64,000 bases of DNA, from contig CAYZYG010000009.1 in the NCBI GenBank assembly GCA_964481395.1, forward strand, positions 959 through 64,958, given 5' to 3'. Source of the DNA: an uncultured Vicinamibacterales bacterium (GTDB taxonomy: Bacteria; Acidobacteriota; Vicinamibacteria; Vicinamibacterales; JAKQTR01). A program made the position numbers and the translations under genes. Of the stretch, positions 5,412 to 63,600 are shown piece by piece. Below the pieces are notes generated by a model. That model was given only the letters and a program-made list of their open reading frames with translations, had not been told where the DNA came from and ran no database searches. How positions within the stretch are numbered: the first letter of the stretch is position 1; each line of letters begins with the position of its first letter.

Positions 5412-5472
5412 GAAGACAGAAGACGCGTGGGGAAAGAGTAGATAGTAGATAGTAGACAGTAGACAGTAGACA
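5412..5472. repeat. Heptamer tandem repeats (GAAGACA x2, then GTAGATA/GTAGACA x5)
   Basis: Units read directly: 5412-5425 and 5438-5472. Located between convergent gene ends. Confidence 0.9.
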
Positions 5473-5506
5473 GGCGGAGCATCGCTGCCGCCGAGGCCAT
5501 CGATCC

Positions 5507-9490: not shown

Positions 9491-10480
9491 ATGCGCCGGA
9501 AGAAAGCGGCCGACGACGTGGCGGTGAAGGCGCAACTGGCGCAACTGGCCGGCGTGCCGCCTGACGAGATCGTGATCACCCGTAACACCACCGAGTCGCT
9601 GGGCACGGTGACCCACGGCATCGACCTCGCGCCGGGGGACGAGGCGGTGATGTGCAACCAGGACTACGGTTCGATGCTGGAGCAGTTCCGCCAGCAGTCG
9701 AAGCGCCGCGGGCTCAAGTGCGTCGAGATCGCCATTCCGCTGCACCTAAAGGACGACCAGGAAATGGTCGACACCTACGCGGCGGCGATGACGCCGCGCA
9801 CGAAGCTGCTGCTCGTGTCCCACATGGTGAACATCACCGGGCAGATCCTGCCCGTGCGCAAGATCGCCGACATGGCCCACGCGCGGGGCGTTTCGGTGAT
9901 CGTGGACGCGGCGCACTCGTTCGCCCACCTGAACTTCACGATTCCCGAGCTGGACGGCGACTTCTTCGGCGCGAGTCTGCACAAGTGGCTGTGTACGCCG
10001 CTCGGCGCCGGCATCCTGCACATCAAGAAGGATCGGATCAAGGACGTGTGGCCGCTCCTTGGCGACACCTCTCGGCCCGCAGACGACATCCGCAAGTTCG
10101 AGCGTCTCGGCACGCAGCCCGTGTGGACGATGCTGGCCGTTGCCGACGCGATCCGCTTCCACACGATGATTGGCGCGGCGCGCAAGGAAGCGCGGCTGCG
10201 TTACCTGCAGCAGTACTGGACCGACAAGGTGCGCGGGTTCCCGAAGGTCTACCTGAACACGCCGACCGGCAACCGCGCGTGCGGCATCGCGAACGTAGGC
10301 GTCACGGGGATGACGCCGAAGGAGCTGGCGGACACGCTCTTCGACCGGTTCAACATCTACACCGTGGCCATCGACACGGTGGCCGTCAAAGGGACGCGCG
10401 TCACGCCGCACCTCTATACGACGACGGCCGAACTCGACGCGCTCGTGAAGGCGCTTCAGGAACTCGCCCGCCGGGCCTGA
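9491..10480 (+). CDS. Class V aminotransferase-fold PLP enzyme (cysteine desulfurase / isopenicillin-N epimerase-like), apparently 5'-truncated
   Basis: Motifs ITRNTTESL, SHMVNITGQILP and ASLHKWL (PLP lysine). In-frame homologous-looking codons (LENGYSSPEP...FYMR) extend upstream to the TAG at 9383-9385 with no ATG/GTG/TTG start. Confidence 0.7.
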   Translation: MRRKKAADDVAVKAQLAQLAGVPPDEIVITRNTTESLGTVTHGIDLAPGDEAVMCNQDYGSMLEQFRQQSKRRGLKCVEIAIPLHLKDDQEMVDTYAAAMTPRTKLLLVSHMVNITGQILPVRKIADMAHARGVSVIVDAAHSFAHLNFTIPELDGDFFGASLHKWLCTPLGAGILHIKKDRIKDVWPLLGDTSRPADDIRKFERLGTQPVWTMLAVADAIRFHTMIGAARKEARLRYLQQYWTDKVRGFPKVYLNTPTGNRACGIANVGVTGMTPKELADTLFDRFNIYTVAIDTVAVKGTRVTPHLYTTTAELDALVKALQELARRA

Positions 10481-10660: not shown

Positions 10661-10695
10661 CTGACTCCTGACTCCTGACTCCTGAATTCTGTCCT
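10661..10695. repeat. Heptamer tandem repeat (CTGACTC x3 plus degenerate units)
   Basis: CTGACTC CTGACTC CTGACTC CTGAATT CTGTCCT, ending 3 nt before the stop codon of the minus-strand protease gene. Confidence 0.9.
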
Positions 10696-13941: not shown

Positions 13942-14482
13942 CGTTCGCTCGCTGGATGATCACGGACCGTAGACGCGGTGTCACACCCACGCGGGTCCTG
14001 TCGCCGGACAGCCCACCGGTGCTCAGACCCACAACCATGACCACGGCTGGGGGTCTTCCGCCCCGGCGGGCGCCCATCCGGCGCCACCCGCGCGGGCTGC
14101 GCGAACCGCTCCAGATTGTAGACAGTAGACAGTCGGAAGCGCGAACGCAAGTGGACGCGTCCGCGCAGGTCGTGCCGTGGTGCAACCCCGTGGTGCGACC
14201 CCCGGTCTTGTCCCGACTTGAACGTCGGTTCCCGAATGCCGATCCGTACTTGGGGCAAGCGGCCCCTATCGTGCTGCTTGCCAACAGCAGATTTCGTGCG
14301 ACTCGTCCAGTGAGTCTGCACACTGTTTGCGCCGCGGAGAATCCTCCGTGCAATGTGCGCCGGAGGTCTTGACCGCCTGATGCCGGACGTGGAGGATGTT
14401 CATGCCGCGTATGTGCTGGCGTGGGGCGGTGCCCACTCTGGCCTGTTTTCGCCCGAAGTCGTGGCGCCGAACCGGTGAGCCC

Positions 14483-23932: not shown

Positions 23933-24008
23933 CCCGGCTCGTGTCCGCTTCTCCGTGCCTGCCTGGCATCGCCGAGGGCTGGAAGCCTCGAGCGCCGACC
24001 TGGAGAAC

Positions 24009-24074
24009 GTCATTCCGGGAGCGCGAAGCGAAGCCCGGAATCCAGCTCTGGATTCCCGCTTCCGCGGGAATGAC
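24009..24074. repeat. MITE-like imperfect inverted-repeat element (GTCATTCC...GGGAATGAC), copy 1
   Basis: Termini GTCATTCCGGGAG / CGCGGGAATGAC are inverted. Translating it gives the WIPxSAGMT-type pseudo-peptide. A second copy is at 60215-60312. Confidence 0.75.
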
Positions 24075-24104
24075 GTGGGGTGGCGCCAGGGGACATCCAC
24101 AGCC

Positions 24105-24167
24105 GATCTCCGGTCCCCGGTCCCCGATCCCCGGTCCCCGATCCCTGTTCTCCGACTCCCGGTTCCC
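24105..24167. repeat. Heptamer tandem repeat, C-rich class (GGTCCCC/GATCCCC, about 9 units)
   Basis: GATCTCC GGTCCCC GGTCCCC GATCCCC GGTCCCC GATCCCT GTTCTCC GACTCCC GGTTCCC, read directly. Confidence 0.9.
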
Positions 24168-24182
24168 GACCTGTCCGTTTCC

Positions 24183-26644: not shown

Positions 26645-26711
26645 GACAGCGTCCCTCGGTCCCGGGTTCGGGGGGCGGGGATTGGCTCAACCGATCCCCG
26701 GTCCCCGGTCC

Positions 26712-28121
26712 CTACACGTGTCTGTACACTTCCCACCCGAGGTACGTCTCGAGCGCGTCCTCGATGGCTTCTGCCACGGTTTCCCGTGTCGCGGCCACGT
26801 GGTGTTCGAACCCCATGCGGCAGATGTACTGCAACAGGTCCTGGAAGCGCGGGATCTCGACGACCCCGTAGCCGCCGAACGTGTCGAGCGCATCGTCCGT
26901 GAAGCGCCCTTCGCCGACGTACGCCGCGATCGCGCCCCTGATCTCGTCCGTGGAGACGCGGCAGTAGGTGAACGGCCCGGGCGCGACCCGGCCGACAATC
27001 GTGCCGTACGTGTTCTCGCGGCCGACGGTGCCCGCGATGATCTCCTGGTAGTCCATCCGCTGCTCCGCAAAGAAAGCCCTCGGCAGGTTGGAGCAGTGGA
27101 AGACGACGGCCTTGTCGGGATCGTCGGCGTAGTTGTTGTTCCAGTCGAGGAGGGCGGCGGGCTTCTGCGAGGCCGCCTGCAGCACGTACATGCCGACGAC
27201 ACCGGCCACGTCCGTCTCGCAGCCACTGGGCAGGAGCGAGTCGGACATCATGCTCATCAGCGTGCACGGAACGATGCCGTAGAACTCCTCGAGCGCCGTC
27301 CAGCACTGGATGGCCGTGGCCGAGAGGTGCTTGTCCCGCACCCAGCGATCGATGGCGACGCCCAGTTTCGCCATCTTCATCAGGCTCAGCGTCGGGATTC
27401 CCTTTACGGATGTGTAGCCCATGACGGCGTCGAGCTTGGCCCTGACCTCCGGCTCCGCGTCCGGCATCTTCGCGATCCACCCGAGCGCCTCGGACAGGTC
27501 GAGGGTCTCGATGCTGATGCCCGACCGCTCGAGCAGTTTCTCGCTGTAGCGGACCGTGTTGAAAGCGGCCGGCCTGGCGCCAAGAGCGCCGATCCTCGCG
27601 TGCCTGAGGGCGCGGACCACGCGGCACGTCGCGCCGAAGCGGCGGAGGTCGTCTCGGAAGGACGCTGATGCCGGGTCGACGGTGTGCAGCGACGTCAGGG
27701 AGTAGCGGATGCCGTACTGCCGGAGGTTGTTGCAGACCGACATCTTGCCGCAGAAGGCATCGCGCCGGTGTGTGATGGTCATCCGGTCGCCCGCGTCGCT
27801 GAACGCGTGGATGAGGACCGGCACGTCGAGTTCGGCCCAGCGGAGGGTGTTGGCCACCGCCCGCTCGTCGCCGAAGTTCGGGAGCGTGACCAGCACGCCG
27901 TCGATCTCGTCTCGGTGGGCGCGCAACAGGTCCGCGCACGCCCGGGCCTCCTCGAGGCTCTCGACGGCGCCGTGGCGCGTTGCGTCCGGAGCCAGAGCAA
28001 CCGACTGGAACCCTTCGGCTGCCAGGGCTTCAAGAACGGCCTGGCGGCCTGTTTCACACAGATGCGCCGGGAAAAACCCTCGGTTGCCGACGACGAGGGC
28101 GAGGGTGGTGGGCGTAGGCAT
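26712..28121 (-). CDS. L-fucose/L-arabinose isomerase-family protein (about 470-aa type)
   Basis: N-terminal LALVVGNRGFFP...VTLPNFGDE pattern. Positioned upstream of araB-araD in the same orientation. Confidence 0.8.
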   Translation of the reverse strand: MPTPTTLALVVGNRGFFPAHLCETGRQAVLEALAAEGFQSVALAPDATRHGAVESLEEARACADLLRAHRDEIDGVLVTLPNFGDERAVANTLRWAELDVPVLIHAFSDAGDRMTITHRRDAFCGKMSVCNNLRQYGIRYSLTSLHTVDPASASFRDDLRRFGATCRVVRALRHARIGALGARPAAFNTVRYSEKLLERSGISIETLDLSEALGWIAKMPDAEPEVRAKLDAVMGYTSVKGIPTLSLMKMAKLGVAIDRWVRDKHLSATAIQCWTALEEFYGIVPCTLMSMMSDSLLPSGCETDVAGVVGMYVLQAASQKPAALLDWNNNYADDPDKAVVFHCSNLPRAFFAEQRMDYQEIIAGTVGRENTYGTIVGRVAPGPFTYCRVSTDEIRGAIAAYVGEGRFTDDALDTFGGYGVVEIPRFQDLLQYICRMGFEHHVAATRETVAEAIEDALETYLGWEVYRHV

Positions 28122-28374
28122 GCAACAGTTCTCCGTCAGGCAGGCGAGGGGCGGCCGACGCGGAGAACGTTATCACGGTCCGGGGGATGACCGGTACACG
28201 AAGACCGGGCCTCGAGATCCGGGAGCCGGGATCCGGGATGCGGTCCTGCACGGCACAGACGCCTGGAACGGGCGCCGACAGGGCCGGTGGTACACGCCTC
28301 GACCGAGGGTCACAGACGAGCCATGCCGCGGCCTGCGGGCCCGCCTGTAGAATGATGGTCTCTGAGGAGCAGTC

Positions 28375-36195: not shown

Positions 36196-36364
36196 GTGTG
36201 GCTGTTGTACTCCGAAACGACAGCGGCGCGACAGTCGGGACCCGACTTCGCCGCGCACGCGGACGCGGCTTCGTCGAGGCAGGCCCGGGACCCGGATCCC
36301 GGGACCCGATCGCCGTCAGTTCCTTTGTGCCATACTCCGCGAGTCAATCGACGGAGACCGACAC

Positions 36365-39672: not shown

Positions 39673-41436
39673 ATGACGACGATCGACTGGGTAGTCATCT
39701 TCGCGTACTTCGCCGGGCTGGCCGCTCTGACGTGGTGGGCCATCCGCAAGAACCGCGACACCGCCGACGACTACTTCCTGGCCGGCCGGAACCTCGGCTG
39801 GTGGGTGGTCGGGGCGTCGATTTTCGCGTCGAACATCGGCTCCGAGCACCTCGTCGGTCTGGCCGGTTCAGGGGCCACCAGCGGTGTGGCGCTGGCGCAC
39901 TACGAATTGCACGCTTGGTGCCTGCTCGTGCTCGGCTGGGTGCTCGTGCCTTTCTACATCCGCTCGCGCGTCTACACGATGCCCGAGTTCCTGGAGCGGC
40001 GGTTTTCGCCGACCGCGCGCTGGGTCCTCTCGCTCATCTCGCTCGTCGCCTACGTCCTGACCAAGCTGGCCGTCGGGATCTTCGCGGGCGGCATCGTGTT
40101 CGGGACGCTGCTCCCGGAGTTGACCGTCCACATCGGCAGCTTCACGCTCAACAGCTTCTGGGTCGGTTCTGTGCTCGTCGTCCTGCTGACGGGGCTTTAC
40201 ACCGTTCTCGGCGGCATGCGCGCCGTCGCCTACACGGAGGCCGTACAGACGGCGGTCCTCGTCGTCGGGTCGCTGATGCTCACGGTCTTCGGGCTGTCGA
40301 AGCTCGGCGGGTGGGGTGAGCTGCGTGCGGCGCTCGACCCGGACATGTTCAACCTGTGGAAGCCGCTCATTCCCGCCGGCGTCGAGGGCACGTGGGCGCC
40401 CGTCAAGGAAGCGGGCCGCATGGCGTGGTACTTCAACACGAACTACCCGTGGCTGGGCATGCTGTTCTGCGCGCCGATCATCGGCCTCTGGTACTGGTGC
40501 ACGGACCAGTACATCGTTCAGCGCGCGCTCGGAGCGCCGAGCGAGCAGGAGGCGCGGCGCGGCAGCATCTTCGCGTCGTTCCTGAAGCTGCTTCCGGTTT
40601 TCATCTTCATCATCCCCGGCATGATCGCCCTGGCGCTCGCGAAGACCGGTCGAGCCACGGGCCTCGAAACCATCATCGACGCCGGCGGCAACGTCGTGAC
40701 GTCATCGGCGCAGGCTGCTTTTCCGCTGATGGTGCAGGCGGTGATGCCCGCCGGACTGCGCGGCATCGTCGTGGCGGGCCTTCTTGCCGCGCTCATGAGT
40801 TCGCTGGCGGGGACGTTCAACGCCTGCTCGACGCTCTTCACGATGGACTTCTACCAGCAGCACCGGCCCAAAGCCACCCAGCACCAGCTCGTGTGGGTCG
40901 GACGCCTCGCGACGACGGTCATGGTGCTGATCGGGCTCGCGTGGATTCCCGTCATCCAGGGGGCGAAGGGGCTCTACGAGTACCTGCAGGGCGTTCAGGG
41001 ATACCTCGCCCCGCCGATTTTCGCCGTCTTCTTCTTCGGCGTGTTCTTCAAGCGGCTCAACGCGAAGGGATGTCTGACCGCGCTCATCGTCGGCTTCGTC
41101 CTGGGGATCTTCCGACTGGCCGTGGACACCCCGATCAGCCTGGCCCTCAGCGGCTACGAGCATGGCTATGCCGTCGGCTCGTTCCTCTGGGTCGTCAACA
41201 ACATCTACTTTCAGTACTACAGTCTGTTCATTTTTGTCGTGTCGACGCTGGCGATGTTCGCGGTGAGCTACGCGACCGAGGTGCCGGACGAATCGAAACT
41301 GACGGGCCTGACCTACGCGACGGTGACCGCCGAGCACCGCGCGGAGTCGCGGCGAAGCTGGGGCCGGGGGGACGTCATCAGTTCGGGGGTCGTGCTGCTG
41401 CTGATTCTCGCGGCGTATCTGTATTTCAACGGGTAG
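39673..41436 (+). CDS. Sodium:solute symporter (SSS/SGLT family)
   Basis: DYFLAGRNLGWWVVGASIFASNIGSEHLVGLAG and about 14 TM segments. Confidence 0.9.
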   Translation: MTTIDWVVIFAYFAGLAALTWWAIRKNRDTADDYFLAGRNLGWWVVGASIFASNIGSEHLVGLAGSGATSGVALAHYELHAWCLLVLGWVLVPFYIRSRVYTMPEFLERRFSPTARWVLSLISLVAYVLTKLAVGIFAGGIVFGTLLPELTVHIGSFTLNSFWVGSVLVVLLTGLYTVLGGMRAVAYTEAVQTAVLVVGSLMLTVFGLSKLGGWGELRAALDPDMFNLWKPLIPAGVEGTWAPVKEAGRMAWYFNTNYPWLGMLFCAPIIGLWYWCTDQYIVQRALGAPSEQEARRGSIFASFLKLLPVFIFIIPGMIALALAKTGRATGLETIIDAGGNVVTSSAQAAFPLMVQAVMPAGLRGIVVAGLLAALMSSLAGTFNACSTLFTMDFYQQHRPKATQHQLVWVGRLATTVMVLIGLAWIPVIQGAKGLYEYLQGVQGYLAPPIFAVFFFGVFFKRLNAKGCLTALIVGFVLGIFRLAVDTPISLALSGYEHGYAVGSFLWVVNNIYFQYYSLFIFVVSTLAMFAVSYATEVPDESKLTGLTYATVTAEHRAESRRSWGRGDVISSGVVLLLILAAYLYFNG

Positions 41437-41443
41437 GACAACA

Positions 41444-41510
41444 GGGACCGGGGAGCTGGGACCGGGGACCAGTTGTGGAGGTCCCCAGTCCCCATTCGTG
41501 GTCCTCGGGG
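41444..41510. repeat. About 65-bp element: G-rich heptamers, spacer, C-rich heptamers, then CCATTCGTGGTCCTCGG (copy A)
   Basis: GGGACCGGGGAGCTGGGACCGGGGACCAGTTGTGGAGGTCCCCAGTCCCCATTCGTGGTCCTCGGGG. A close relative is at 52411-52476. Confidence 0.85.
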
Positions 41511-41529: not shown

Positions 41530-41601
41530 GCCCGCCCTACCGTGCCCGATAAGGCCCGCCCTACCGTGCCCGATGCGGCCCGTCCTACCGCCCCCGAGGT
41601 G
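41530..41601. repeat. 24-bp tandem repeat x3 (GCCCGCCCTACCGTGCCCGATNNN)
   Basis: Units 41530-41553, 41554-41577 and 41578-41601 (the third is degenerate). Confidence 0.85.
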
Positions 41602-46678: not shown

Positions 46679-46789
46679 GTTCGCTCCGGTCCTGTGAATC
46701 CCGTCTCGCCCAGCCCTGTGTCCGTGCCGGCACTCGGGGAAGGTTGCTTCGAATCCCGATCCCCGACCCCCGACTCCCGGATTGTGGCC

Positions 46790-49813: not shown

Positions 49814-49841
49814 TCTCCTGACTCCTGACTCCTGACCCCCC
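49814..49841. repeat. Heptamer tandem repeat (TCTCCTG ACTCCTG ACTCCTG ACCCCCC)
   Basis: Read directly. Same CTGACTC class as the array at 10661-10695. Confidence 0.85.
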
Positions 49842-52384: not shown

Positions 52385-52410
52385 AGGACGGGGCAGATTC
52401 CCACACGGTC

Positions 52411-52476
52411 GGGACCCGGGACCCGGGGCCGGGGATCAGCTGTTGAGTCCCGAGTTCCCATTCGTGGTCCTCGGTG
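52411..52476. repeat. About 65-bp heptamer-arm element, copy B
   Basis: GGGACCCGGGACCCGGGGCCGGGGATCAGCTGTTGAGTCCCGAGTTCCCATTCGTGGTCCTCGGTG. Begins 27 nt after a plus-strand stop codon. Confidence 0.85.
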
Positions 52477-55430: not shown

Positions 55431-58400
55431 ATGACCTGCCCCCGATGCGGTACCAGCGCGCCGCCACGTGACGGTGTCTGCGGAACCTGCGGCGAACCAT
55501 CGCCTGCGGGCGACCAGACCATCCTGCCGGGCGGCCAGCTGCCAGCGGACCAGACCACCCTGCCTTCTGCCGCGGGCGTCGGCGGCGACGAGGCCCCTCT
55601 CGTGCCAGATGCCCCGGGCGCGACGATGGTGCCGTCCCGACCGCCCGATCCCGACTCGACGATCCTGCCGCAGACGAGTCCGGCGCCTGAGGCGACGGTC
55701 TTGCCCTTGGTGCCGGCGGACCCCGACGGAACCGTTACACCAGAAAGCCGCCCCCCGGCGCGTTCGCGCACCAATACCGGATCGTCGGTTGGCACGACTG
55801 GCGGCGCGAGCGCGGTCCTCGAAGTCGGCCAACCGTTCGGAAGCCGGTATCACATCATCCGGGTTCTCGGCGAAGGCGGGATGGGCGCCGTCTACCAGGC
55901 CTGGGACGAGGAGTTGGGCGTGGCCGTCGCGCTCAAGGTGATCAGGCCCGAGGTGCTGAGCGATCCCGTCCAGGCGAGGGAGCTTGAACGCCGCTTCAAG
56001 CGCGAGCTGCTGCTGGCGCGTCAGGTCACGCACAAGAACGTCGTCCGCATTCACGATCTCGGCGAAGTCGAGGGCATCAAGTACATCACGATGACCTTCG
56101 TGCACGGCGACGACCTGGCCACCGCGCTGAAGAAGGACGGGCGGCTCCCGGTGCCGCGCGTACTCGCAGCTGCACGGCAGGTCGTGTCCGGCTTGCAGGC
56201 CGCGCACGAGGCGGGCGTGGTGCACCGCGACCTGAAACCCGCCAACATCATGATGGACGCCGACGGCAGCGCGCTCATCATGGACTTCGGCATCGCGCTG
56301 TCGACCGGTGACGGCGAGAAGAAGACCGGGCAGGCGGGCGCGGCCGCGCAAGCGTCTGCCGTCCAGGATGACGCCGCCACCATGATGGGGGCGCCGCCGC
56401 CGCCAGACCTGATGCGGGCGACCGGCAGCGGCACCATCCTCAGCACGCGCTCGGGCGGCATCGTCGGCACGCTGGAGTACATGGCGCCCGAACAGGCCCG
56501 AGGCGAGAAGGTCGATCACCGCGCGGACATCTACGCGTTCGGGCTGATTCTCTCAGACCTGCTGACGGGACGACGCGAGGCCAAACCCGGGTCGACCCCG
56601 TGGGACACGCTGACGGATCGCATTACCACCGCCCCCGCGCCACTGCGCGGACGGTGCGCCGACATCCCAGAAGCGCTGGATGCCGTCGTCACGAAGTGCG
56701 TGCAACTCGATCCGGCGGCTCGCTATCAGACGACGGCCGAACTGGCCGCGGCCCTCTCGCGGCTGGACGATGAAGGGAACTCGATACCCGAGCCGGTCGT
56801 GAAGCGCTTCACACCGAAGGTCCTGGCCGCCGCGGCAGCCCTGGTCATGACGCTGGTTGGCGGGACGTACTTCCTGGCCCGAGGGCCGGGAGAGGCGCCG
56901 CCTCCGCCAGAGCCGATGTCGGTGCTGATTGCCGATTTCGCCAACAACACCCAGGAGCCTGTGTTCAATGGCCTGATCGAGCAGGCGATGACCGTCGGCG
57001 TCGAAGGCGCCTCCTTCGTGTCCGCGTACCCGCGCGCCGACGCGTTGAAGGTGGCCGGCCAGGTCAGACCCGGCAGCAGACTCGACGACGCGACGGCGGC
57101 GCTCGTCGCGCTGCGTGAAGGCGTGGACCGGGTCATCACGGGCGCCATCAGCAAGGACGGCTCCCGCTATCGGGTCGACGTGAGACTGATCGATCCTTCG
57201 GAGGCCGCGGAACAGCAGGTGCTGGCTTCGTGGGACGGACAGGCGTCCGACCGGGACGCCGTCCTTCCGGCGGTGGCCCGTCTGGCCACCAGCGTCCGCG
57301 AGGGGCTTGGTGATACGACGGCCGCGAGCGACGCCACGCGCGATGAGGAGAGCTTCACGGCCTCGTCGCTCGAGGCTGCGCAGGCGTACACGGCGGCTCA
57401 GGAGTTCCAATGGGCCGGCAAGTACCAGGAGGCCTTCGACCAGTACAAGCGGGCCTCGGAGCTCGATCCCACCATGGGGCGGGCATTCTCGGGGCTCGGG
57501 GCGATGGCGAGCAGCCTCGGGCGGACCGCCGAGGCGGAGGAGTACTACAAGCAAGCGCTCGGGCGGCTGAATCGCATGACGGACCGGGAGAAGTACCGCA
57601 CGCGTGGCGGCTACTATCTGCTCACGCGCAACTCGGACAAGGCGCGCGAGGAGATGCAGGCGCTCGTTCAGCAGTACCCGGCCGACAGTGCGGGCCTGAT
57701 CAACCTGGCGCTGGCCGAATTCTACCGGCGCAACATGGCGAAGTCCGTCGAACTGGGGCTCCAGGCATCTGCTCTCCTGCCGCGCAACGTGCTGTACAAG
57801 AACAACACCGCGTTGTTCGCGATGTACGCCGGCAACTTCGAGCTGGCCGAGAAGGAAGCCAGCGGCGTGCTCGAGATCAACCCCGAGTTCGCGAAGGCGT
57901 TTGTGGCCATCGCGTTGTCGCAGCTTGCGCTCGACCGGGTGGCCGATGCCGACACGACGTGGCGACGCCTGGAACCGCTGCCAGGGTCGGCCACGTGGTT
58001 CGAGGCCCTCGGGCTGGCCGATCTGGCCATGTACCAGGGCAAGCTCTCCGATGCCGCCACGCTCCTTGACGCGGCCGTGAAGGCCGAGGCCGACCCGTCG
58101 CGCCAGGCCCGGCTGCTCGTGACGCTGGCCGAGGTCAGGAACCTCCAGGGGCGCTGGCGCGACGCCGTGAAGCTGGCCCGGCAGGCTACGACGGTGAGCG
58201 ATCGAGCCAGCATCGCGTTCCTGGCCGGGCGCGAGCTTGCGAAGGGCGGGCAGACGAGAGAAGCCTTCGAGATCGTCCGCAAGCTCCTGCAGCGCCTCGA
58301 CGCCGAGTCGCTGGCCAACGCCCGCGTCCTCGAAGGCGAGATCGCGCTCGAGGAGAACGATCCGCGCAAGGCCATCGAGCGCTTCAAGACGGCTCAGCAG

Positions 58401-58706
58401 TTCGCCGACTCCTGGCTGGGCCGCTTCGGCCTCGGACGCGCGTACCTCGCCGCGGGCGCGATTGCCGAGGCCGACTCGGAGTTCGACCTCTGCTTCAAGC
58501 GGCGCGGCGAGGCCACAGCCGTGCTGCTCGACGACGTGCCGACGTACCGGCTGTTCGCGCCGGTGCTGTACTACCAGGGCCGTGTCCGGCAGGAGTTGGG
58601 CAGTCCCGACGCGTCCGCGTCGTACGAGGCATTCGTGGCGCTGAAGGCGAACGGCGACGAGCAGGGGCTCGTGGCCGACGCCCGCACGCGGCTGGCCGCG
58701 CAGTAG
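55431..58706 (+). CDS. Ser/Thr protein kinase with an N-terminal zinc ribbon, TM segment and extracytoplasmic TPR region
   Basis: CPRCG...CGTCG. Kinase motifs GEGGMGAVY, VALKV, HRDLKPANIM, DFG and YMAPE. One TM. C-terminal TPR-like repeats. Confidence 0.9.
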   Translation: MTCPRCGTSAPPRDGVCGTCGEPSPAGDQTILPGGQLPADQTTLPSAAGVGGDEAPLVPDAPGATMVPSRPPDPDSTILPQTSPAPEATVLPLVPADPDGTVTPESRPPARSRTNTGSSVGTTGGASAVLEVGQPFGSRYHIIRVLGEGGMGAVYQAWDEELGVAVALKVIRPEVLSDPVQARELERRFKRELLLARQVTHKNVVRIHDLGEVEGIKYITMTFVHGDDLATALKKDGRLPVPRVLAAARQVVSGLQAAHEAGVVHRDLKPANIMMDADGSALIMDFGIALSTGDGEKKTGQAGAAAQASAVQDDAATMMGAPPPPDLMRATGSGTILSTRSGGIVGTLEYMAPEQARGEKVDHRADIYAFGLILSDLLTGRREAKPGSTPWDTLTDRITTAPAPLRGRCADIPEALDAVVTKCVQLDPAARYQTTAELAAALSRLDDEGNSIPEPVVKRFTPKVLAAAAALVMTLVGGTYFLARGPGEAPPPPEPMSVLIADFANNTQEPVFNGLIEQAMTVGVEGASFVSAYPRADALKVAGQVRPGSRLDDATAALVALREGVDRVITGAISKDGSRYRVDVRLIDPSEAAEQQVLASWDGQASDRDAVLPAVARLATSVREGLGDTTAASDATRDEESFTASSLEAAQAYTAAQEFQWAGKYQEAFDQYKRASELDPTMGRAFSGLGAMASSLGRTAEAEEYYKQALGRLNRMTDREKYRTRGGYYLLTRNSDKAREEMQALVQQYPADSAGLINLALAEFYRRNMAKSVELGLQASALLPRNVLYKNNTALFAMYAGNFELAEKEASGVLEINPEFAKAFVAIALSQLALDRVADADTTWRRLEPLPGSATWFEALGLADLAMYQGKLSDAATLLDAAVKAEADPSRQARLLVTLAEVRNLQGRWRDAVKLARQATTVSDRASIAFLAGRELAKGGQTREAFEIVRKLLQRLDAESLANARVLEGEIALEENDPRKAIERFKTAQQFADSWLGRFGLGRAYLAAGAIAEADSEFDLCFKRRGEATAVLLDDVPTYRLFAPVLYYQGRVRQELGSPDASASYEAFVALKANGDEQGLVADARTRLAAQ

Positions 58707-58780
58707 GCTTGACCGCCGGTTCGCGAGGACACTCGGTCTCGAGTGTTGACGGCCGCGTAGTAAGACGATATCTTACCTTC

Positions 58781-59032
58781 ATGACCACCGTGATCTCCAG
58801 CAAGGGCCAGATCGTGCTCCCCGCCGAGATCCGAAGGCAGGACGACATCCGCCCGGGGGAGGAGTTCAAGGTCGAGCGCCTCGATCCCGGAGAGTACCGT
58901 CTGACGCGTCTGACTCGGAGGAAGAACGCCGGCCTCGTGGATGTGCTCCTGTCGTGTCCGGCAGAGGGCGGGCTCAGTCCGATCGACCGGACGGAGACGA
59001 CCGACGACATCCATCTCCCGGGCGTGGCCTGA
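58781..59032 (+). CDS. AbrB/MazE/SpoVT-type antitoxin (VapB-like)
   Basis: TVISSKGQIVLPAEIRR is the SpoVT/AbrB swapped-hairpin motif. The stop overlaps the toxin ATG. Confidence 0.85.
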   Translation: MTTVISSKGQIVLPAEIRRQDDIRPGEEFKVERLDPGEYRLTRLTRRKNAGLVDVLLSCPAEGGLSPIDRTETTDDIHLPGVA

Positions 59033-59460
59033 TGTTCCTCGTCGATGCGAACGTGCTCAGTGAGGCCACGAAGCCTCAGCCGGACCGAAAGGTCGTCGAC
59101 TGGCTGCGCGCGAACGAAGCGACGATCGTCGTGGACGCCATCGTGCTCGGAGAACTGCGGGCCGGCGTCCTCACACGGCCGGCCGGACGCAAGCGCGAGC
59201 AACTCGAGCGCTGGTTTGCCGTACTGGTTGAGACCGTCGAGTGCGTTCCCTGGGACGCTCGGGTCGGCCTGCGATGGGCCGGACTGATTGCCGATCTCAG
59301 ACGGCGCGGGCGCACGCTGCCGCTCCTCGACAGTATGATTGCCGCGACCGCGTTGGAGCACGAGTTCACTGTGGTGACCCGCAACGTCCGTGACTTCCGT
59401 CGGGCGGGCGTGAAGGTTCTGGATCCGTTCGCGTCACAGCCGAAATCACGGCCGGAGTGA
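59032..59460 (+). CDS. vapC: PIN-domain toxin VapC
   Basis: MFLVDANVLSE...DSMIAATA...VVTRNVRDF. Confidence 0.9.
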   Translation: MFLVDANVLSEATKPQPDRKVVDWLRANEATIVVDAIVLGELRAGVLTRPAGRKREQLERWFAVLVETVECVPWDARVGLRWAGLIADLRRRGRTLPLLDSMIAATALEHEFTVVTRNVRDFRRAGVKVLDPFASQPKSRPE

Positions 59461-59530
59461 TTCCGGCCGAAGACCGAAATCATCCACCGAAATCAGTCCG
59501 GGAGTGTCCGGGAGTGATTGCGCGAACCGC

Positions 59531-60586
59531 ATGCCTGTTGCCATCACCCGTGGCGTGAGCGCGTCGCTGGCCTCGTGCGAGCTGACGCACCTGGCGCGGG
59601 CGCCGATTGACCTGAACCTGGCTTGCGCCCAGCACGCGGCGTACGAGGCGGCGCTCGAGCGCGCGGGCTGCCGGGTCGTCTGCCTGCCGCCGCTGGACGA
59701 CTGTCCGGATGCGGTGTTCGTCGAGGACGTCGCGGTGGTGCTCGACGAGATCGCCATCGTCACGAGGCCTGGTGCGGAGTCCAGGCGGGGCGAGGTCGAA
59801 TCCGTTGCGCGGGCGCTCGGGGGCTACCGCAGCGTCAGGCGCATCGAGCCGCCGGGCACGCTCGACGGCGGGGACGTGCTGAGGCTCGGCCGGCGAATCT
59901 ACGTCGGCTTGTCCGGGCGCAGCAACCAGAGCGGGATCGAGCAACTCGGGGCGATGCTGGCCCCGCACGGCTACGAGGTCACGGCCGTGCCCGTGACCGG
60001 CTGCCTGCACCTGAAGTCGGCGGTGACGGAAGTTGCCCTGGGCGTGATCCTCGTCAATCCCGAGTGGGTGAACGCGGCTACGTTCGTCGATGTGGAGGTG
60101 ATCGAGGTCGATCCCGCCGAGCCTTACGCGGCGAACGGGCTGTTCATCGCCTCGCCGCCGGCTGCGCCCGCGCCCGCCGAGCCACCAGCGTTATCTGCGA
60201 ACCTCCCCCGGGTCGTCATTCCGGGGCCGGATCCCTCGGCCTGTCCGTTGGGGGCCGAGGGGCGGGCGGCACCAGGAATCCGGCCCTGGATTCCCACTTC
60301 CGCGGGAATGACGCCAGGAACTCCCAGGGCCTGTCCCAGCGCGTCCTGGCCCACGCGCTGGGACGAGGCAGCACCGAGTCCCGAATCCCGATTCCCGACT
60401 CCCGACGAGAGTCACCTCTGCGTCCGTCTCCCGCCGTCCCACTCGACGCTCATCTACCCCGCATCGTTTCCCCGCACGCGCGCCCGGCTGGAAGCTCACG
60501 GCATTCGACTTGAGATCGTCGACGTCTCGGAGCTGCAGAAGGCCGAAGGCGCGGTGACCTGCTGCAGCCTGGTGTTTCGCGACTAA
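59531..60586 (+). CDS. Dimethylarginine dimethylaminohydrolase (DDAH/amidinotransferase fold) carrying an in-frame insertion of about 99 codons derived from repeat elements
   Basis: VFVEDVAVV, TRPGAESRRGE, LDGGDV, CLHLKS (His) and GAVTCCSL (Cys) align with DDAH. The segment 60149-60445 has no DDAH counterpart and contains the MITE-like and heptamer repeats. Confidence 0.75.
   Translation: MPVAITRGVSASLASCELTHLARAPIDLNLACAQHAAYEAALERAGCRVVCLPPLDDCPDAVFVEDVAVVLDEIAIVTRPGAESRRGEVESVARALGGYRSVRRIEPPGTLDGGDVLRLGRRIYVGLSGRSNQSGIEQLGAMLAPHGYEVTAVPVTGCLHLKSAVTEVALGVILVNPEWVNAATFVDVEVIEVDPAEPYAANGLFIASPPAAPAPAEPPALSANLPRVVIPGPDPSACPLGAEGRAAPGIRPWIPTSAGMTPGTPRACPSASWPTRWDEAAPSPESRFPTPDESHLCVRLPPSHSTLIYPASFPRTRARLEAHGIRLEIVDVSELQKAEGAVTCCSLVFRD
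60215..60312. repeat. MITE-like inverted-repeat element, copy 2, located inside the DDAH reading frame
   Basis: GTCATTCCGGGG...CTGGATTCCCACTTCCGCGGGAATGAC. Same termini and right arm as copy 1 at 24009-24074. Followed at 60378-60405 by GTCCCGA ATCCCGA TTCCCGA CTCCCGA. Confidence 0.8.
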
Positions 60587-60600
60587 CCGTACAGACGAAC

Positions 60601-60629
60601 GGCGGGTGCGGCCCGCTGCCGCACCCGCC
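60601..60629. terminator. 12-bp perfect hairpin GGCGGGTGCGGC-CCGCT-GCCGCACCCGCC between convergent genes
   Basis: Read directly. Begins 15 nt after the DDAH stop. Confidence 0.6.
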
Positions 60630-60630
60630 G

Positions 60631-60690
60631 CCGTTCGTCCCGTCCGTTCGTCCCGTTCGTCCCGTTCGTCCCGTTCGTCCCGTCCGTCCG
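60631..60690. repeat. 9-bp tandem repeat (CCGTTCGTC, about 6 units with CCGTCCGT variants)
   Basis: CCGTTCGTC CCGTCCGTTCGTC CCGTTCGTC CCGTTCGTC CCGTTCGTC CCGTCCGTCC. Confidence 0.85.
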
Positions 60691-60696
60691 GCTCGG

Positions 60697-63600
60697 CTAC
60701 GGCGTGAAGCGGACGGCGTTGCTGAGGAGGCTCGGTCCAAACAGGTAGACCTGGACATCGACCCACCCGCTGACATCGAGATCGGCCGGTATCTGAACGG
60801 TGTGGCGGATTCCGCCCGCGACACCGCCGACGTTTGCGGCCCAACCGGTGCTCGTCTTTGCATTCCCGGCGCCGCTCGCTGGCGTGAAGACGTACGTGGC
60901 CAAGTAGGCACTCGTCGACACGCCGTCAGCCTCGACCGTCAGCCAGGCTCCCGGGATCAGCGACGCCACTGGCGTGGTTGTGAACCCAGTGGCGCTGGTC
61001 GCTTGGAAGATGTGCTGGATGACCGGCGCGCTCGGCGTGTCGGACACGGTGATCGAGAAGGGGTTGGTCGTCGTCGTCTCTTCCGCGTTCCTCAGCGTGA
61101 TTGTTGCGGCACCAGGCAGGAGGGCCTGGGGCAGCATGAAGATCCACTTCGATGCCGTTGCGAGGTGCACCTCGACGGCGGGGTACTCCACCCCGCCTTG
61201 TGTGATCACCACCTGCTGCGCAATCGCGGGCGGGTAGGTTCCGGGCAGCAGGTCGCTGAACGGCAGGCCACTGCCCACAACGGTCACCGCCTGGGCAAAT
61301 GCCTTCCCCGCAGGCTGGGGCGTTACCGACGTGATCGTCCCTCCAGACGCCGGCACTGGCGAGCACACCAGCGCCATGGAGTCGACAATAGAGCCGGCGC
61401 CCCCGACGACGCCGGTCACGGCCTCGCCAGCCGGGCAGTCGTAGGAGAACGCCGTGCCGTTCCAGGCCGCCGGCTGCGGGCCGAGCGGTGCCGGCGCAAT
61501 GGGCCCACCGGCCAGGGCCTGGCACCGTGGCGCAATCGAGGTGACGAAGTCACCGGTGCTGGCCCATGCCGGGCGCCCGTAGGTTCCGTAGAAGCCCACC
61601 ATCACCTCACCCGCCGGGCAGGCCGTGGAGTAGGTTGGCGGGCCCCAGCCCGGATTGGTTACACCCCCGAACTGGGACGGGTGGTTGCCGTCACTGCAGA
61701 GCAGGCCGGCGCTTCCTAGTGCGTCGGTGCCCTGGTTCACGATGAACCCGTTTGCGAACACCCCCGCCGCGCAGTACCCTCCGTACGGGCCGCCCCCCTG
61801 TCCCCCGGCCGGCAGCGTCGATGCGATGGTGTGGGTCGCCGACGCCGACCCGACGTAGCCCGGCTGCGTGACGGTTGCGACCACGGCGTAGGCGCCGATC
61901 GCGCTCGGCACGGTCAGGGTGCCATCGTAGGTGACGGAGTACGCGACCGAGGGCGTCGTGATCACGTTGGCAGGCTTCGGCGAGCCGTCGTACACCGCCC
62001 CCGTTCCGGTAATCGACACACTCACCGGCGTCGCGCCTGCCGGCACCTGAAGGCAGTTCGAGAACTCCGTTGTGCCGCGTGAGTCTGTGGCCGACATCGT
62101 GATGAACGACCCCGGGGCCGCGCTGAAGAACGCGGTGCCGCTGGTGCCTCCCGAGAACGATCCGATGAACGTCTGTCCTTCGCCGCTGCCGCTCGGATCA
62201 CAGGCCACATTCGAGAACAGCTCGAAGATGTAGGGGCCCGCCACGGGCGAGGTGAAGGCGAAGTCGGCTTGCGTGGGTTGGATGTTGCTCAGGACGGGGG
62301 CACCGTTTGCCGCTCCCAGCGGTTCGTAGTCGATGCCGAGACCGCCGTTGACGTAGATGGCGTTCGCGCTGACGGTGGTTCCAGTTGCACCCTGCCACAC
62401 CACGACGCCCGGACCCGCATTGGCGGAAATCGTGTTCCCCGCCAGGATCCCGGACGCGCCCTCGCGGACGTCAACGCCGGCCCCGCCGTTGGGAATCGTG
62501 CCCGTGCCAGCCGCGTTGAGACCGATGTAGTTACCCGTGATCTGCGTGTTGGTGGCCCCCGCGTACGCGCCCTGACCGGTCAGCGCGATGCCCGCAGCGA
62601 GATTCCCTGAAATGACGTTGCGCTGCCCTGGCGCCGCCCCGCCAATCACGTTGTTCGGACCGACCTCGACGTGAATGCCGAACTTGACGTTGGGCAGGGC
62701 AGCGGTGCCGGCGGCGTTCGTGCCGATGAGATTGCCGAACACCGAGTTGCCCGTGCCCCAGATCTTGACACCGTAGGCCGAATTGCCGGAGATGACGTTT
62801 CCCTCGCCGGCGGTGGTGTCTCCACCAATCTGAACACCCGAGACGCCCGAGGCGATCATCACGGCGGCCAGGTCACCCCCGACGGGGCCGTTCGGCCGGG
62901 CCGCGGTTCCGGCGGGATCCGTGCCGATCCGGTTGCTCTTGACGATCACGCCCGCGCCAGTACCTTGCACCAGCACGGCGTGCCCGCCGTTCCCCGAGAT
63001 GACGTTGCCGCTGCCAGGCGCACCGATGGTCGTGCCGCCGGCGTTGACATGCAGGACCCCGCCCCCGACGTTGCCGAGCGCCGCCCCCGACGTGTCCAGG
63101 CCGATCGTGTTCTGCAGAATCTGGGTTCCCGTGGGGGCTCCGGCACCGGTGCTCTGAAGGGCGATGCCCCAACCGGAATTCCCCGACACGAAGTTCCCGT
63201 GAATGATCGTGTTCTGGACGAGGTTGTACGCGGACACGCCCTGGTTGTTCGGAATCGCGCCGGTCCCGGCAGCGTTCAGACCGATGCGGTTTCCCCGGAT
63301 CTCTGTGCCCGTGCCGCCGCGCAGCAGGACGCCGACGTTGTTGCCCGAAATGACGTTGCCGGCCCCGGGCGCGGCCGGCGGGGCGCCGGCCGGTGCGAGC
63401 CCGATGACCGTCGCTGTCGCGCCGCCATCGATGGTGACGCCCGCGTCGTTGCTCCACGCCGCGAGGCCGAGGCCTACCACCGCAATGCCGTTGTTGCCGA
63501 TGAAGTTGCCTTCGATGCGGTTGCCGGCGCCGCTGCGCACCCAGACGCCCTGTGACTGACCGTTGCCGCCGATGACATTACCCTGACCGGGCAGGTGGCC

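Follow-up and report, generated by a model that had tools for sequence, protein, structure and literature searches.

The subject of this work is a stretch of 64,000 nucleotides (64 kb, hereafter the window) from an uncultured Vicinamibacterales bacterium (GenBank contig CAYZYG010000009.1), in which a gene for a dimethylarginine dimethylaminohydrolase-like enzyme (DDAH) contains, in frame, repeats of a non-coding type that are also intergenic in this genome, as a first-pass annotation of the DNA had claimed. The explanation that we regard as probable is that a permissive beta-turn of the enzyme became an ancestral in-frame spacer, since filled with resident repeats, the enzyme itself being predicted to remain intact. 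Judged from comparison with related sequences, the insert site is an old hypervariable spacer and not the mark of a single recent event.

An intact DDAH core surrounds the insert

The DDAH open reading frame (ORF) read from the ATG at 59531 encodes 351 residues, in line with the approximately 350 announced earlier. An alternative GTG start at 59504 would give 360 residues; the N-terminus MPVAITRGVS resembles the MLVAITRGVS of the homologues, which supports the ATG start. When the protein was compared with the PDB by phmmer, the Pseudomonas aeruginosa enzyme (PaDDAH, 3rhy, E=2e-41) was matched by two co-linear blocks, the N-terminal part up to residue 206 and the C-terminal 46 residues, PaDDAH 21-208 being aligned with window residues 19-206 and PaDDAH 211-254 with residues 306-349. 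The homologues of the window protein bear the name dimethylargininase, and the one among them with a named host points to Vicinamibacterales.

The set of close homologues used throughout consisted of the 119 best sequences, the window protein included, with 62-74% identity. In this set, the catalytic residues D112 (Glu114 in PaDDAH), H160 (His162, within the motif CLHLKS) and C344 (Cys249, within TCCS) are invariant or nearly so. Furthermore, the window DDAH core retained 109 of the 109 columns that are at least 95% conserved in the other 118 homologues, including all those located 3' of the insert and thus the whole C-terminal segment. Such a zero-miss score was common to only 35 of the 119 sequences. 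The GC content of the core by codon position was 0.72/0.48/0.89.

An AlphaFold2 (AF2) model based on the 119 homologues displayed the five-bladed beta/alpha propeller fold, with a predicted local distance difference test score (pLDDT) above 90 for the core, and its template modelling (TM) score against the PaDDAH structures 3bpb and 1h70 was 0.91-0.92 relative to the target (Foldseek). With these conserved positions all retained and the fold that of a DDAH, a loop that the enzyme tolerates is a likelier explanation than a pseudogene; among the three options that the first-pass annotation had left side by side, a tolerated surface loop, here at a beta-hairpin turn, is the one that fits best. 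The gene is taken to be intact and the enzyme, with its long disordered loop, is probably still functional.

Two independent assemblies (SRR15237815 and SRR15237799) were identical to the window over 58374-60673 and 58710-60673, respectively. As both of them agree with the window across the DDAH gene, the insert is no assembly artefact. A chimeric joining of intergenic DNA, or the reading of two genes as one, could be suspected because repeats are classic misassembly sites and because two short contigs end in an array of 9-mers at 60673. Such an error is nevertheless extremely improbable: the three assemblies, identical across the gene, come from different read sets, the two DDAH halves share a frame and make up a single fold that requires both, and inserts at this point recur in relatives that come from unrelated samples. 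In addition, the insert has no promoter- or terminator-like site; a scan of 59400-60750 for internal promoters and terminators found none, so that two transcription units received no support. A search of Rfam with 59000-61000 (E≤1) gave no match, hence no known structured RNA or intron.

The insert replaces a beta-hairpin turn and has the composition of non-coding DNA

Relative to the 118 homologues, the insert amounts to an excess of 97 residues. It spans 60149 to 60439 or 60442, its end being ambiguous in the alignment, and this ambiguity explains the discrepancy with the borders first given (60149-60445). Its position between H160 and C344 confirmed the earlier placement between the catalytic His and Cys. 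In the AF2 model it is directly flanked by the strands 204-206 and 306-310, and the structural mapping that had been suggested as a check located it at the beta-hairpin turn corresponding to PaDDAH 208-211. The features of the gene, of the insert and of the related repeats are collected in Table 1.

Table 1. Coordinates of the DDAH gene, of the parts of its insert and of the related repeats in the window
Feature	Coordinates	Strand	Evidence or remark
DDAH ORF, 351 residues from ATG	59531-60586	+	PaDDAH, E=2e-41
In-frame insert, 97-98 codons, in place of a 2-residue beta-hairpin turn (strands 204-206 and 306-310)	60149-60442	+	PaDDAH alignment, AF2
GC-rich leader of the insert (ASPPAAPAPAEPPALSANLPRV)	60149-60213	+	contains 11-nt repeat of the core
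Left unit of the repeat dimer: CGTC tag, ATTCC...GGAAT stem, CCGG tail, long structured loop; variant CGTC type	60214-60283	+	sequence
Nested 9-bp hairpin CCCTCGGCC-(11 nt)-GGCCGAGGG in the loop of the left unit	60233-60261	.	
Right unit of the repeat dimer, CGTCATTCCCGCGGAAGTGGGAATCCAG on the minus strand; CGTC-1/dRS3/NTS type	60286-60313	-	2 mismatches to NTS CGTCATTCCCGCGMAVGCGGGAATCYRG
Perfect hairpin, 12-bp stem, 8-nt loop, GTCCCAGCGCGT...ACGCGCTGGGAC; no T-tract, not terminator-like	60333-60364	.	
Imperfect heptamer array CCGAGTC CCGAATC CCGATTC CCGACTC CCGAC, 4.7 copies, 88% matches	60374-60406	+	Tandem Repeats Finder (TRF)
Insert tail (ESHLCVRLPPSH)	60407-60442	+	
Intergenic sister dimer between convergent genes	24008-24075	.	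blastn versus insert
Intergenic C-rich heptamer array, 27 nt 3' of the 24-kb dimer, in the order and polarity found inside the DDAH gene	24103-24169	+	
Intergenic heptamer arrays	174-204, 2611-2645, 2682-2719, 5437-5473, 10661-10685, 14118-14133, 24103-24169, 26691-26712, 28216-28243, 36284-36308, 41444-41470, 46755-46782, 49815-49836, 52410-52435		

The insert peptide contains 24% Pro and 62% Pro, Ala, Ser, Gly and Thr taken together, and the pLDDT falls below 50 at residues 237-298; a Pro/Ala/Ser-rich, probably disordered segment had indeed been anticipated. The GC content by codon position is flat (0.69/0.76/0.73): the composition of the insert is of the non-coding type, without codon periodicity. 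Its length is a multiple of three and it contains no stop, as had been pointed out, which is weak evidence, given that a single frame is stop-free in 25% of shuffles and in 36% of real intergenic windows of 291 nt, and that the +1 frame of the insert is likewise open.

These figures bear on the possibility that the gene is a recent pseudogene, whose folding or activity was destroyed by the composite insert or by its latest addition, with no further lesions yet and a frame left open by luck. An open in-frame stretch of 291 nt would arise by chance with a probability of about 0.1 (0.25-0.36 for the absence of stops, multiplied by 1/3 for the length), the +1 frame is open too, and the 97-residue insert is three times longer than the longest insert of any relative. 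We nevertheless consider this explanation unlikely: the core has lost none of its highly conserved columns, its third codon positions have a GC content of 0.89, and the model predicts with confidence that it folds around the loop.

Folding of the whole insert as RNA gave a z-score of -1.79, versus +0.37 for a core control, a weak signal in GC-rich DNA; the evidence lies in the discrete perfect hairpins and not in global folding. We rejected the idea that the insert had arisen by duplication and decay of the C-terminal end of the gene together with the spacer downstream, as no similarity was detected and the sole internal repeat is an 11-mer. This exact direct repeat, CCCGCCGAGCC, is found in the core at 60113-60123 and in the leader at 60173-60183, with a spacing of 60 nt, and the core peptide DPAEPYAAN is echoed in the leader as APAEPPALSAN. 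A short tandem duplication may have left this repeat behind, but the evidence is only suggestive, 20 of 2000 shuffles scoring equally.

The palindromic unit belongs to the CGTC-tagged dRS3/NTS type

The insert contains an inverted repeat that the first-pass annotation had already delimited (60215-60312), with the ends GTCATTCC...GGAATGAC. It consists of two inverted repetitive extragenic palindromic (REP) units (60214-60313), and the window REP unit is, by its sequence, of the CGTC-tagged dRS3/NTS type, CGTCATTCCCGCGGAAG(C/T)GGGAATCCAG. In the CGTC superfamily, the REPs of family 1 have an 8-bp stem starting with A-T/T-A, a 4-nt loop and a short tail (PMC3733652). This CGTC-1 family is the dRS3 of Neisseria and the RPE-6 of Rickettsia, and it occurs chiefly as inverted dimers (Di Nocera et al. 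2013, PMC3733652). The 64-kb window contains two CGTC dimers, one in the DDAH gene and one near 24 kb, both inverted with their tags outward. On the minus strand, the unit 24048-24075 reads CGTC-ATTCCCGC-GGAA-GCGGGAAT-CCAG, exactly as CGTC-1 is defined, and the unit 60286-60313 of the DDAH copy departs from this definition by one stem mismatch.

The same units were compared with the NTS, CGTCATTCCCGCGMAVGCGGGAATCYRG, the single-stranded DNA target of the GIY-YIG nuclease SsnA, which typically flanks the ssn gene (2025 paper, PMC11893778). The minus-strand unit 24048-24075 reads CGTCATTCCCGCGGAAGCGGGAATCCAG, that is, the NTS consensus with one mismatch. If at most one mismatch is allowed, as in that paper, this copy would count as an NTS, and the DDAH copy, with two, would not. 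Neither unit was matched by the strict SRM regular expression, by one loop base. This expression was discarded for counting, since it returned two unrelated matches in the window and missed the true units.

A scan with ATTCCCNCTTCCGCGGGAATGAC, carried out on one genome per species, gave more than 120 matching stretches, which is a lower bound. Among the matches listed were loci from Proteobacteria, Binatia, Phycisphaerae, Chloroflexota, Nitrospiria, Patescibacteria and others, and approximately 46 of these listed loci, from many phyla, were gene-less inverted dimers of 60-120 nt similar to those of the window. In two loci (L117 and L122), units identical to the window hairpin flank, in inverted orientation, an ORF of about 90 residues, which in L122 encodes a GIY-YIG domain protein (PF01541, E=2e-17). 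The complete NTS(+)/GIY-YIG ORF/NTS(-) units were located at 4832-5184 in L117 and at 1839-2197 in L122; the ORF of L117 has an apparent in-frame stop near its N-terminus.

The term "MITE-like" (miniature inverted-repeat transposable element) had been applied to the repeat in the DDAH gene. It is justified by the terminal inverted repeats GTCATTCC...GGAATGAC, by the small size (66 and 98 nt for the two window copies) and by the absence of coding capacity, but not by any target-site duplication: the direct repeats that had been proposed as a check were found around neither of the two dimers nor around the whole insert. More precisely, the element is an inverted dimer of CGTC REPs. From their sequence and from the two loci with a nuclease ORF, the window dimers have the appearance of NTS-ssn-NTS derivatives in which the gene is missing, so that "MITE-like" is a fair description.

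The same repeats are intergenic elsewhere in the window

When the insert was compared with the rest of the window by blastn, 60272-60313 aligned with 24034-24075 over 42 nt with 90.5% identity (E=3e-11). The similarity to 24009-24167, whose disappearance under proper alignment statistics would have removed the basis of the earlier claim, thus held. The GTCATTCC...GGAATGAC dimer has one other copy in the window, at 24009-24074, and, apart from the DDAH copy, CGTCATTCC occurs in the window only at the two ends of the dimer 24008-24075. The in-gene REPs have diverged both from this sister copy and from the consensus, which suggests that the gene remained intact for some time after the insertion, against the expectation for a recent pseudogene.

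A further component of the insert is the C-rich heptamer array, placed at 60378-60405 in the first instance and at 60374-60406 by TRF, in which position 5 is G, A, T and C in successive units. Its best blastn matches were the arrays at 46750-46779 (E=1e-4) and 24152-24170. At both window dimers, a C-rich heptamer array follows 27-61 nt on, on the same side, so that the composite order reported for 24009-24167 was recovered at the two sites. We had considered whether this association characterizes the element family as a whole, but an adjacent heptamer array was present at 0 of 46 comparable dimers from other genomes, and the composite is for that reason a feature of this genome.

Among the heptamer arrays of at least three copies in the window, 12 of 13 are intergenic, that of DDAH being the one intragenic case. 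Short heptamer arrays were observed in nearly every intergenic spacer, with diverse unit sequences (CAGAAGA, AGTAGAC, CTGACTC, CCGGTCC, CCCGATC and others), and a period-7 scan gave a density of about 0.17 per kb in the window versus 0.03 per kb in 826 kb of other genomes. Abundant intergenic heptamers are known in cyanobacteria. They have also been described in Beggiatoaceae (PMC4679880). For the present lineage, we found no published description of heptamer abundance.

One clade of DDAH proteins carries unrelated inserts at the same turn

The canonical segment at the site, L-V-G-G-R-L-I (7 residues), was found in 100 of the 119 homologues. In the 19 others, that is, the window protein and 18 relatives, 4 to 97 residues are added at the same point, between L-[LV]-[IV] and G-x-x-I-Y-P. 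The inserts of the 18 relatives are 4-32 residues long and unrelated in sequence. In a neighbour-joining (NJ) tree computed with the insert columns left out, all 19 insert-bearers formed one clade, with the window protein in a basal position, and there were essentially no inserts in 80 more distant metagenomic DDAH loci. Since the insert-bearers form one clade and have unrelated inserts at the same turn, the site would have been expanded already in the ancestor of the clade and would have undergone turnover since. The option of a very recent event, affecting a gene that is normal in other respects, was thus not borne out. The 18 relatives, with an intact enzyme and an insert at this turn, also speak against the pseudogene.

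According to the first-pass annotation, its claim would be refuted by inserts of unrelated sequence in orthologues from distant taxa, which would designate a genuine domain. This was observed in part, as unrelated inserts do exist in the 18 relatives, but they are no genuine domain: their lengths are variable, the GC content by codon position is flat in the inserts of eight relatives as it is in that of the window, and the window insert is predicted to be disordered.

In three of the related loci (L003, L005 and L008), DDAH lies between a kinase-TPR gene and a giant beta-helix gene, toxin-antitoxin (TA) pairs being interspersed, and this synteny shows that their DDAH genes are true orthologues. 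The inserts of L003 and L005 contain a REP of another superfamily, tagged GTAG (GTAG-CCCCGGACC-TTCA-GGTCCGGGG, with a 9-bp G+C-rich stem). In L005, the in-gene copy is identical at 31 of 31 positions to an intergenic copy located 680 nt upstream; in L003, an intergenic copy lies 1.2 kb downstream; a degenerate copy was detected in L134. Between L003 and L005, the REPs inside the gene agree at 31 of 33 positions (94%), in genes whose third codon positions are only 53% identical (P=3e-7). In view of this contrast, the REP was either inserted independently in each lineage or homogenized by conversion. The GTAG REP is absent from the window and the CGTC dimer is absent from the relatives; therefore, the loop of each of these genomes carries the repeat that is resident in that genome.

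In the kinase-DDAH spacer, L005 has three GTAG-tagged GTAGCCCCGGACC half-sites (9904-9971) and L008 an inverted pair of GTAG-tagged units (9943-9989), so that DDAH is bracketed by the REP family that also occupies its loop. The idea that the empty site offers a palindrome as target (such as GGCGGCCGCC, contained in GGC GGC CGC C) was dropped, as no consistent palindrome was present in about 50 empty-site DNA sequences. Two proteins of the alignment A2 showed other rearrangements: an internal duplication of about 80 residues from the middle of the enzyme in P0006 (340 residues) and, in P0105, a tandem duplication of 13 residues immediately before the insert site.

A permissive turn that gathers resident repeats

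The sequence of events that we favour would be as follows. The beta-hairpin turn, canonically L-V-G-G-R-L-I, would have been enlarged already in the common ancestor of the DDAH sub-clade. The resulting spacer would since have evolved like intergenic DNA, with a length and a sequence specific to each lineage, the frame and the absence of stops being its only visible constraints, and would have gathered whatever small repeats populate the intergenic DNA of the host: in the window, the CGTC-REP inverted dimer, the perfect hairpin and the heptamer array; in two sister lineages, a GTAG REP that matches their own intergenic REPs. Once a first element was present, the site could have acted as a landing pad, through the homing of REPs to palindromes or other REPs and through REP-REP recombination, and gene conversion would keep the in-gene copy "fresh". 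REPs have been reported to insert into palindromes or into other REPs (PMC3733652). The mRNA would be translated through the insert, giving a loop of about 97 Pro/Ala/Ser-rich disordered residues in an otherwise normal and probably active DDAH. Of this account, the anatomy and composition of the insert, the identity of the repeats, the distribution in the clade and the intact core are shown, and translation, activity, the landing pad and the order of events are inferred.

Several observations weigh against this explanation. Given the chance of about 0.1 calculated above, the preservation of the frame in this one gene is no proof of selection. The monophyly of the insert-bearers comes from a single NJ tree without support values, and these proteins were recruited as full-length predicted proteins, with the consequence that frameshifted alleles would have been missed (ascertainment bias). 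The databases contain no relative above 75% identity (best, 74% at the protein level) that could provide an empty-site allele or date the individual insertions. The pattern of resident repeats was established for just 3-4 of 9 lineages; in L008, L011, L012 and L137, the 20-kb flanks contained nothing that repeated the sequence of the insert. Finally, the 64-kb window contained no Ssn gene detectable by tblastn with the GIY-YIG ORF of L122 (E≤10), and no REP-associated tyrosine transposase (RAYT) was seen in it, in the course of an analysis that included no search aimed at RAYT.

A further alternative is that the enlarged loop has been selected, as a flexible tether, as an interaction or regulatory segment, or as a heptamer slippage switch of the catalytic C-terminus (a contingency locus). 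The enlargement persists through the whole sub-clade and the heptamer array lies 5' of the catalytic Cys, where the gain or loss of one unit shifts the frame, 7 not being a multiple of 3. Nevertheless, we find this alternative rather improbable, as the inserts have neither a common sequence nor a common length, their composition is that of non-coding DNA, and the window insert is predicted to be disordered. A switch is further disfavoured by the imperfect units (88% matches, position 5 being different in each), which hamper slippage, and by the constant copy number in the three assemblies, at variance with what characterizes a phase-variable locus. No homologue of the insert peptide (80 residues, E≤10) was retrieved from the protein collection, a weak negative since the search also missed the window protein itself.

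Beyond the permissive turn that we favour, a broader proposal is that this one codon position is a long-lived intragenic landing pad across the sub-clade, where GTAG and CGTC/NTS REPs, along with heptamer arrays, integrate, are homogenized with intergenic copies of their kind and turn over. The presence of different resident REPs at one turn, together with 94% identity of the REPs in spite of saturated synonymous sites, suggests REP homing or REP-REP gene conversion inside coding DNA. We put the landing pad forward as a tentative idea that is rather doubtful at present. If it were true, the gene would record the repeat ecology of each host inside an ORF, and it would offer a natural system for measuring rates of REP insertion and of gene conversion under a simple frame constraint.

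Comparison with known repeat systems

In-frame intragenic REPs are known for both the GTAG and the CGTC superfamilies (Di Nocera et al. 2013, PMC3733652), and the Rickettsia palindromic elements (RPE) are the classic precedent for in-frame palindromic insertions (PMC3733652, citing Ogata et al.). As with RPE-4, RPE-6 and other intragenic REPs, small palindromic repeats that are normally intergenic are found here in frame inside the gene of a known protein, and the unit of the DDAH insert falls in the CGTC-1 family, as do RPE-6 and dRS3. More than half of the published intragenic REPs are dimers or clusters, and they have been argued to occupy loops or linkers and to be neutral (PMC3733652); the same is proposed for the DDAH insert. 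The published REP-encoded stretches comprise 20-30 residues for dimers and 43-82 residues for clusters in Thauera and R. conorii (PMC3733652), whereas the DDAH insert reaches 97 residues and includes a hairpin and a heptamer array that are not REPs. In contrast to Rickettsia, the host has a high-GC genome of the free-living type, and, unlike in the published cases, the same turn is occupied across a clade of orthologues by REPs of two superfamilies. Thus, in-frame insertion of REPs and RPEs is already documented, and the DDAH case is distinctive by its 97-residue size, by its composite make-up and by the recurrent occupation of one turn by different REP families.

The likeness to the NTS/Ssn system (PMC11893778) extends from the units 24048-24075 and 60286-60313, with one and two mismatches to CGTCATTCCCGCGMAVGCGGGAATCYRG, to the loci L117 and L122, whose GIY-YIG ORFs are arranged as in the published NTS-ssn-NTS unit. 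The differences are that no Ssn gene accompanies the repeats in the 64-kb window, that the strict SRM pattern is missed by one loop base and that no role in transformation can be inferred for the window units. NTS are reported to be rarely intragenic, with 2% in N. meningitidis 8013 (PMC11893778); the DDAH copy is intragenic.

As in REPINs and MITEs, two inverted hairpin units make up an element of 66-98 nt without coding capacity, which is present as many gene-less copies across genomes, and in other genomes a small nuclease gene is bordered by these termini. Unlike REPINs and MITEs, the element has no target-site duplication, and the window shows no more than two copies. The mobility of CGTC dimers is putative: no dedicated transposase was found for them (PMC3733652), and only an architecture resembling that of insertion sequences has been noted (PMC11893778). 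The hairpin in the loops of L003 and L005 is similar to RAYT-associated GTAG REPs, with its GTAG tag, its 9-bp G+C-rich stem and its intergenic copies; it is a feature of the relatives and not of the window.

The DDAH gene thus provides a clean, well-delimited case, outside Rickettsia, of palindromic "extragenic" repeats that are predicted to be translated within a conserved enzyme, and it involves an element that is now tied to a characterized nuclease family (Ssn/NTS). It also contains a warning for annotation: over-long versions of compact enzymes in high-GC metagenomic genomes may be intact proteins with repeat-derived disordered loops and need be neither errors nor pseudogenes.

Surroundings of the DDAH gene

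Directly 5' of the DDAH start codon, the 10-nt unit GTCCGGGAGT is present twice (59496-59516). The 3' side (60594-60689) contains a perfect 13-bp hairpin at 60600-60630 and the 9-mer CCGTTCGTC, repeated five times at 60644-60689, with its complement GACGAACGG at 60594-60602. Both of the short independent contigs, L001 and L002, stop within this 9-mer array at 60673.

In the window, a pair formed by a MazE/AbrB-type antitoxin and a PIN toxin is located between the kinase and DDAH (58781-59460). In the syntenic relatives, a TA pair of the PIN/MazE or HepT/MNT type lies on the opposite side of DDAH (L003 5419-6251, L005 10870-11525 and L008 10868-11616). The neighbourhood of DDAH is therefore a variable slot for TA modules. 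Elsewhere in the window, a 24-nt tandem repeat (2.8 copies, 88% matches) was observed at 41530-41597, in the spacer that follows the gene ending at 41436.

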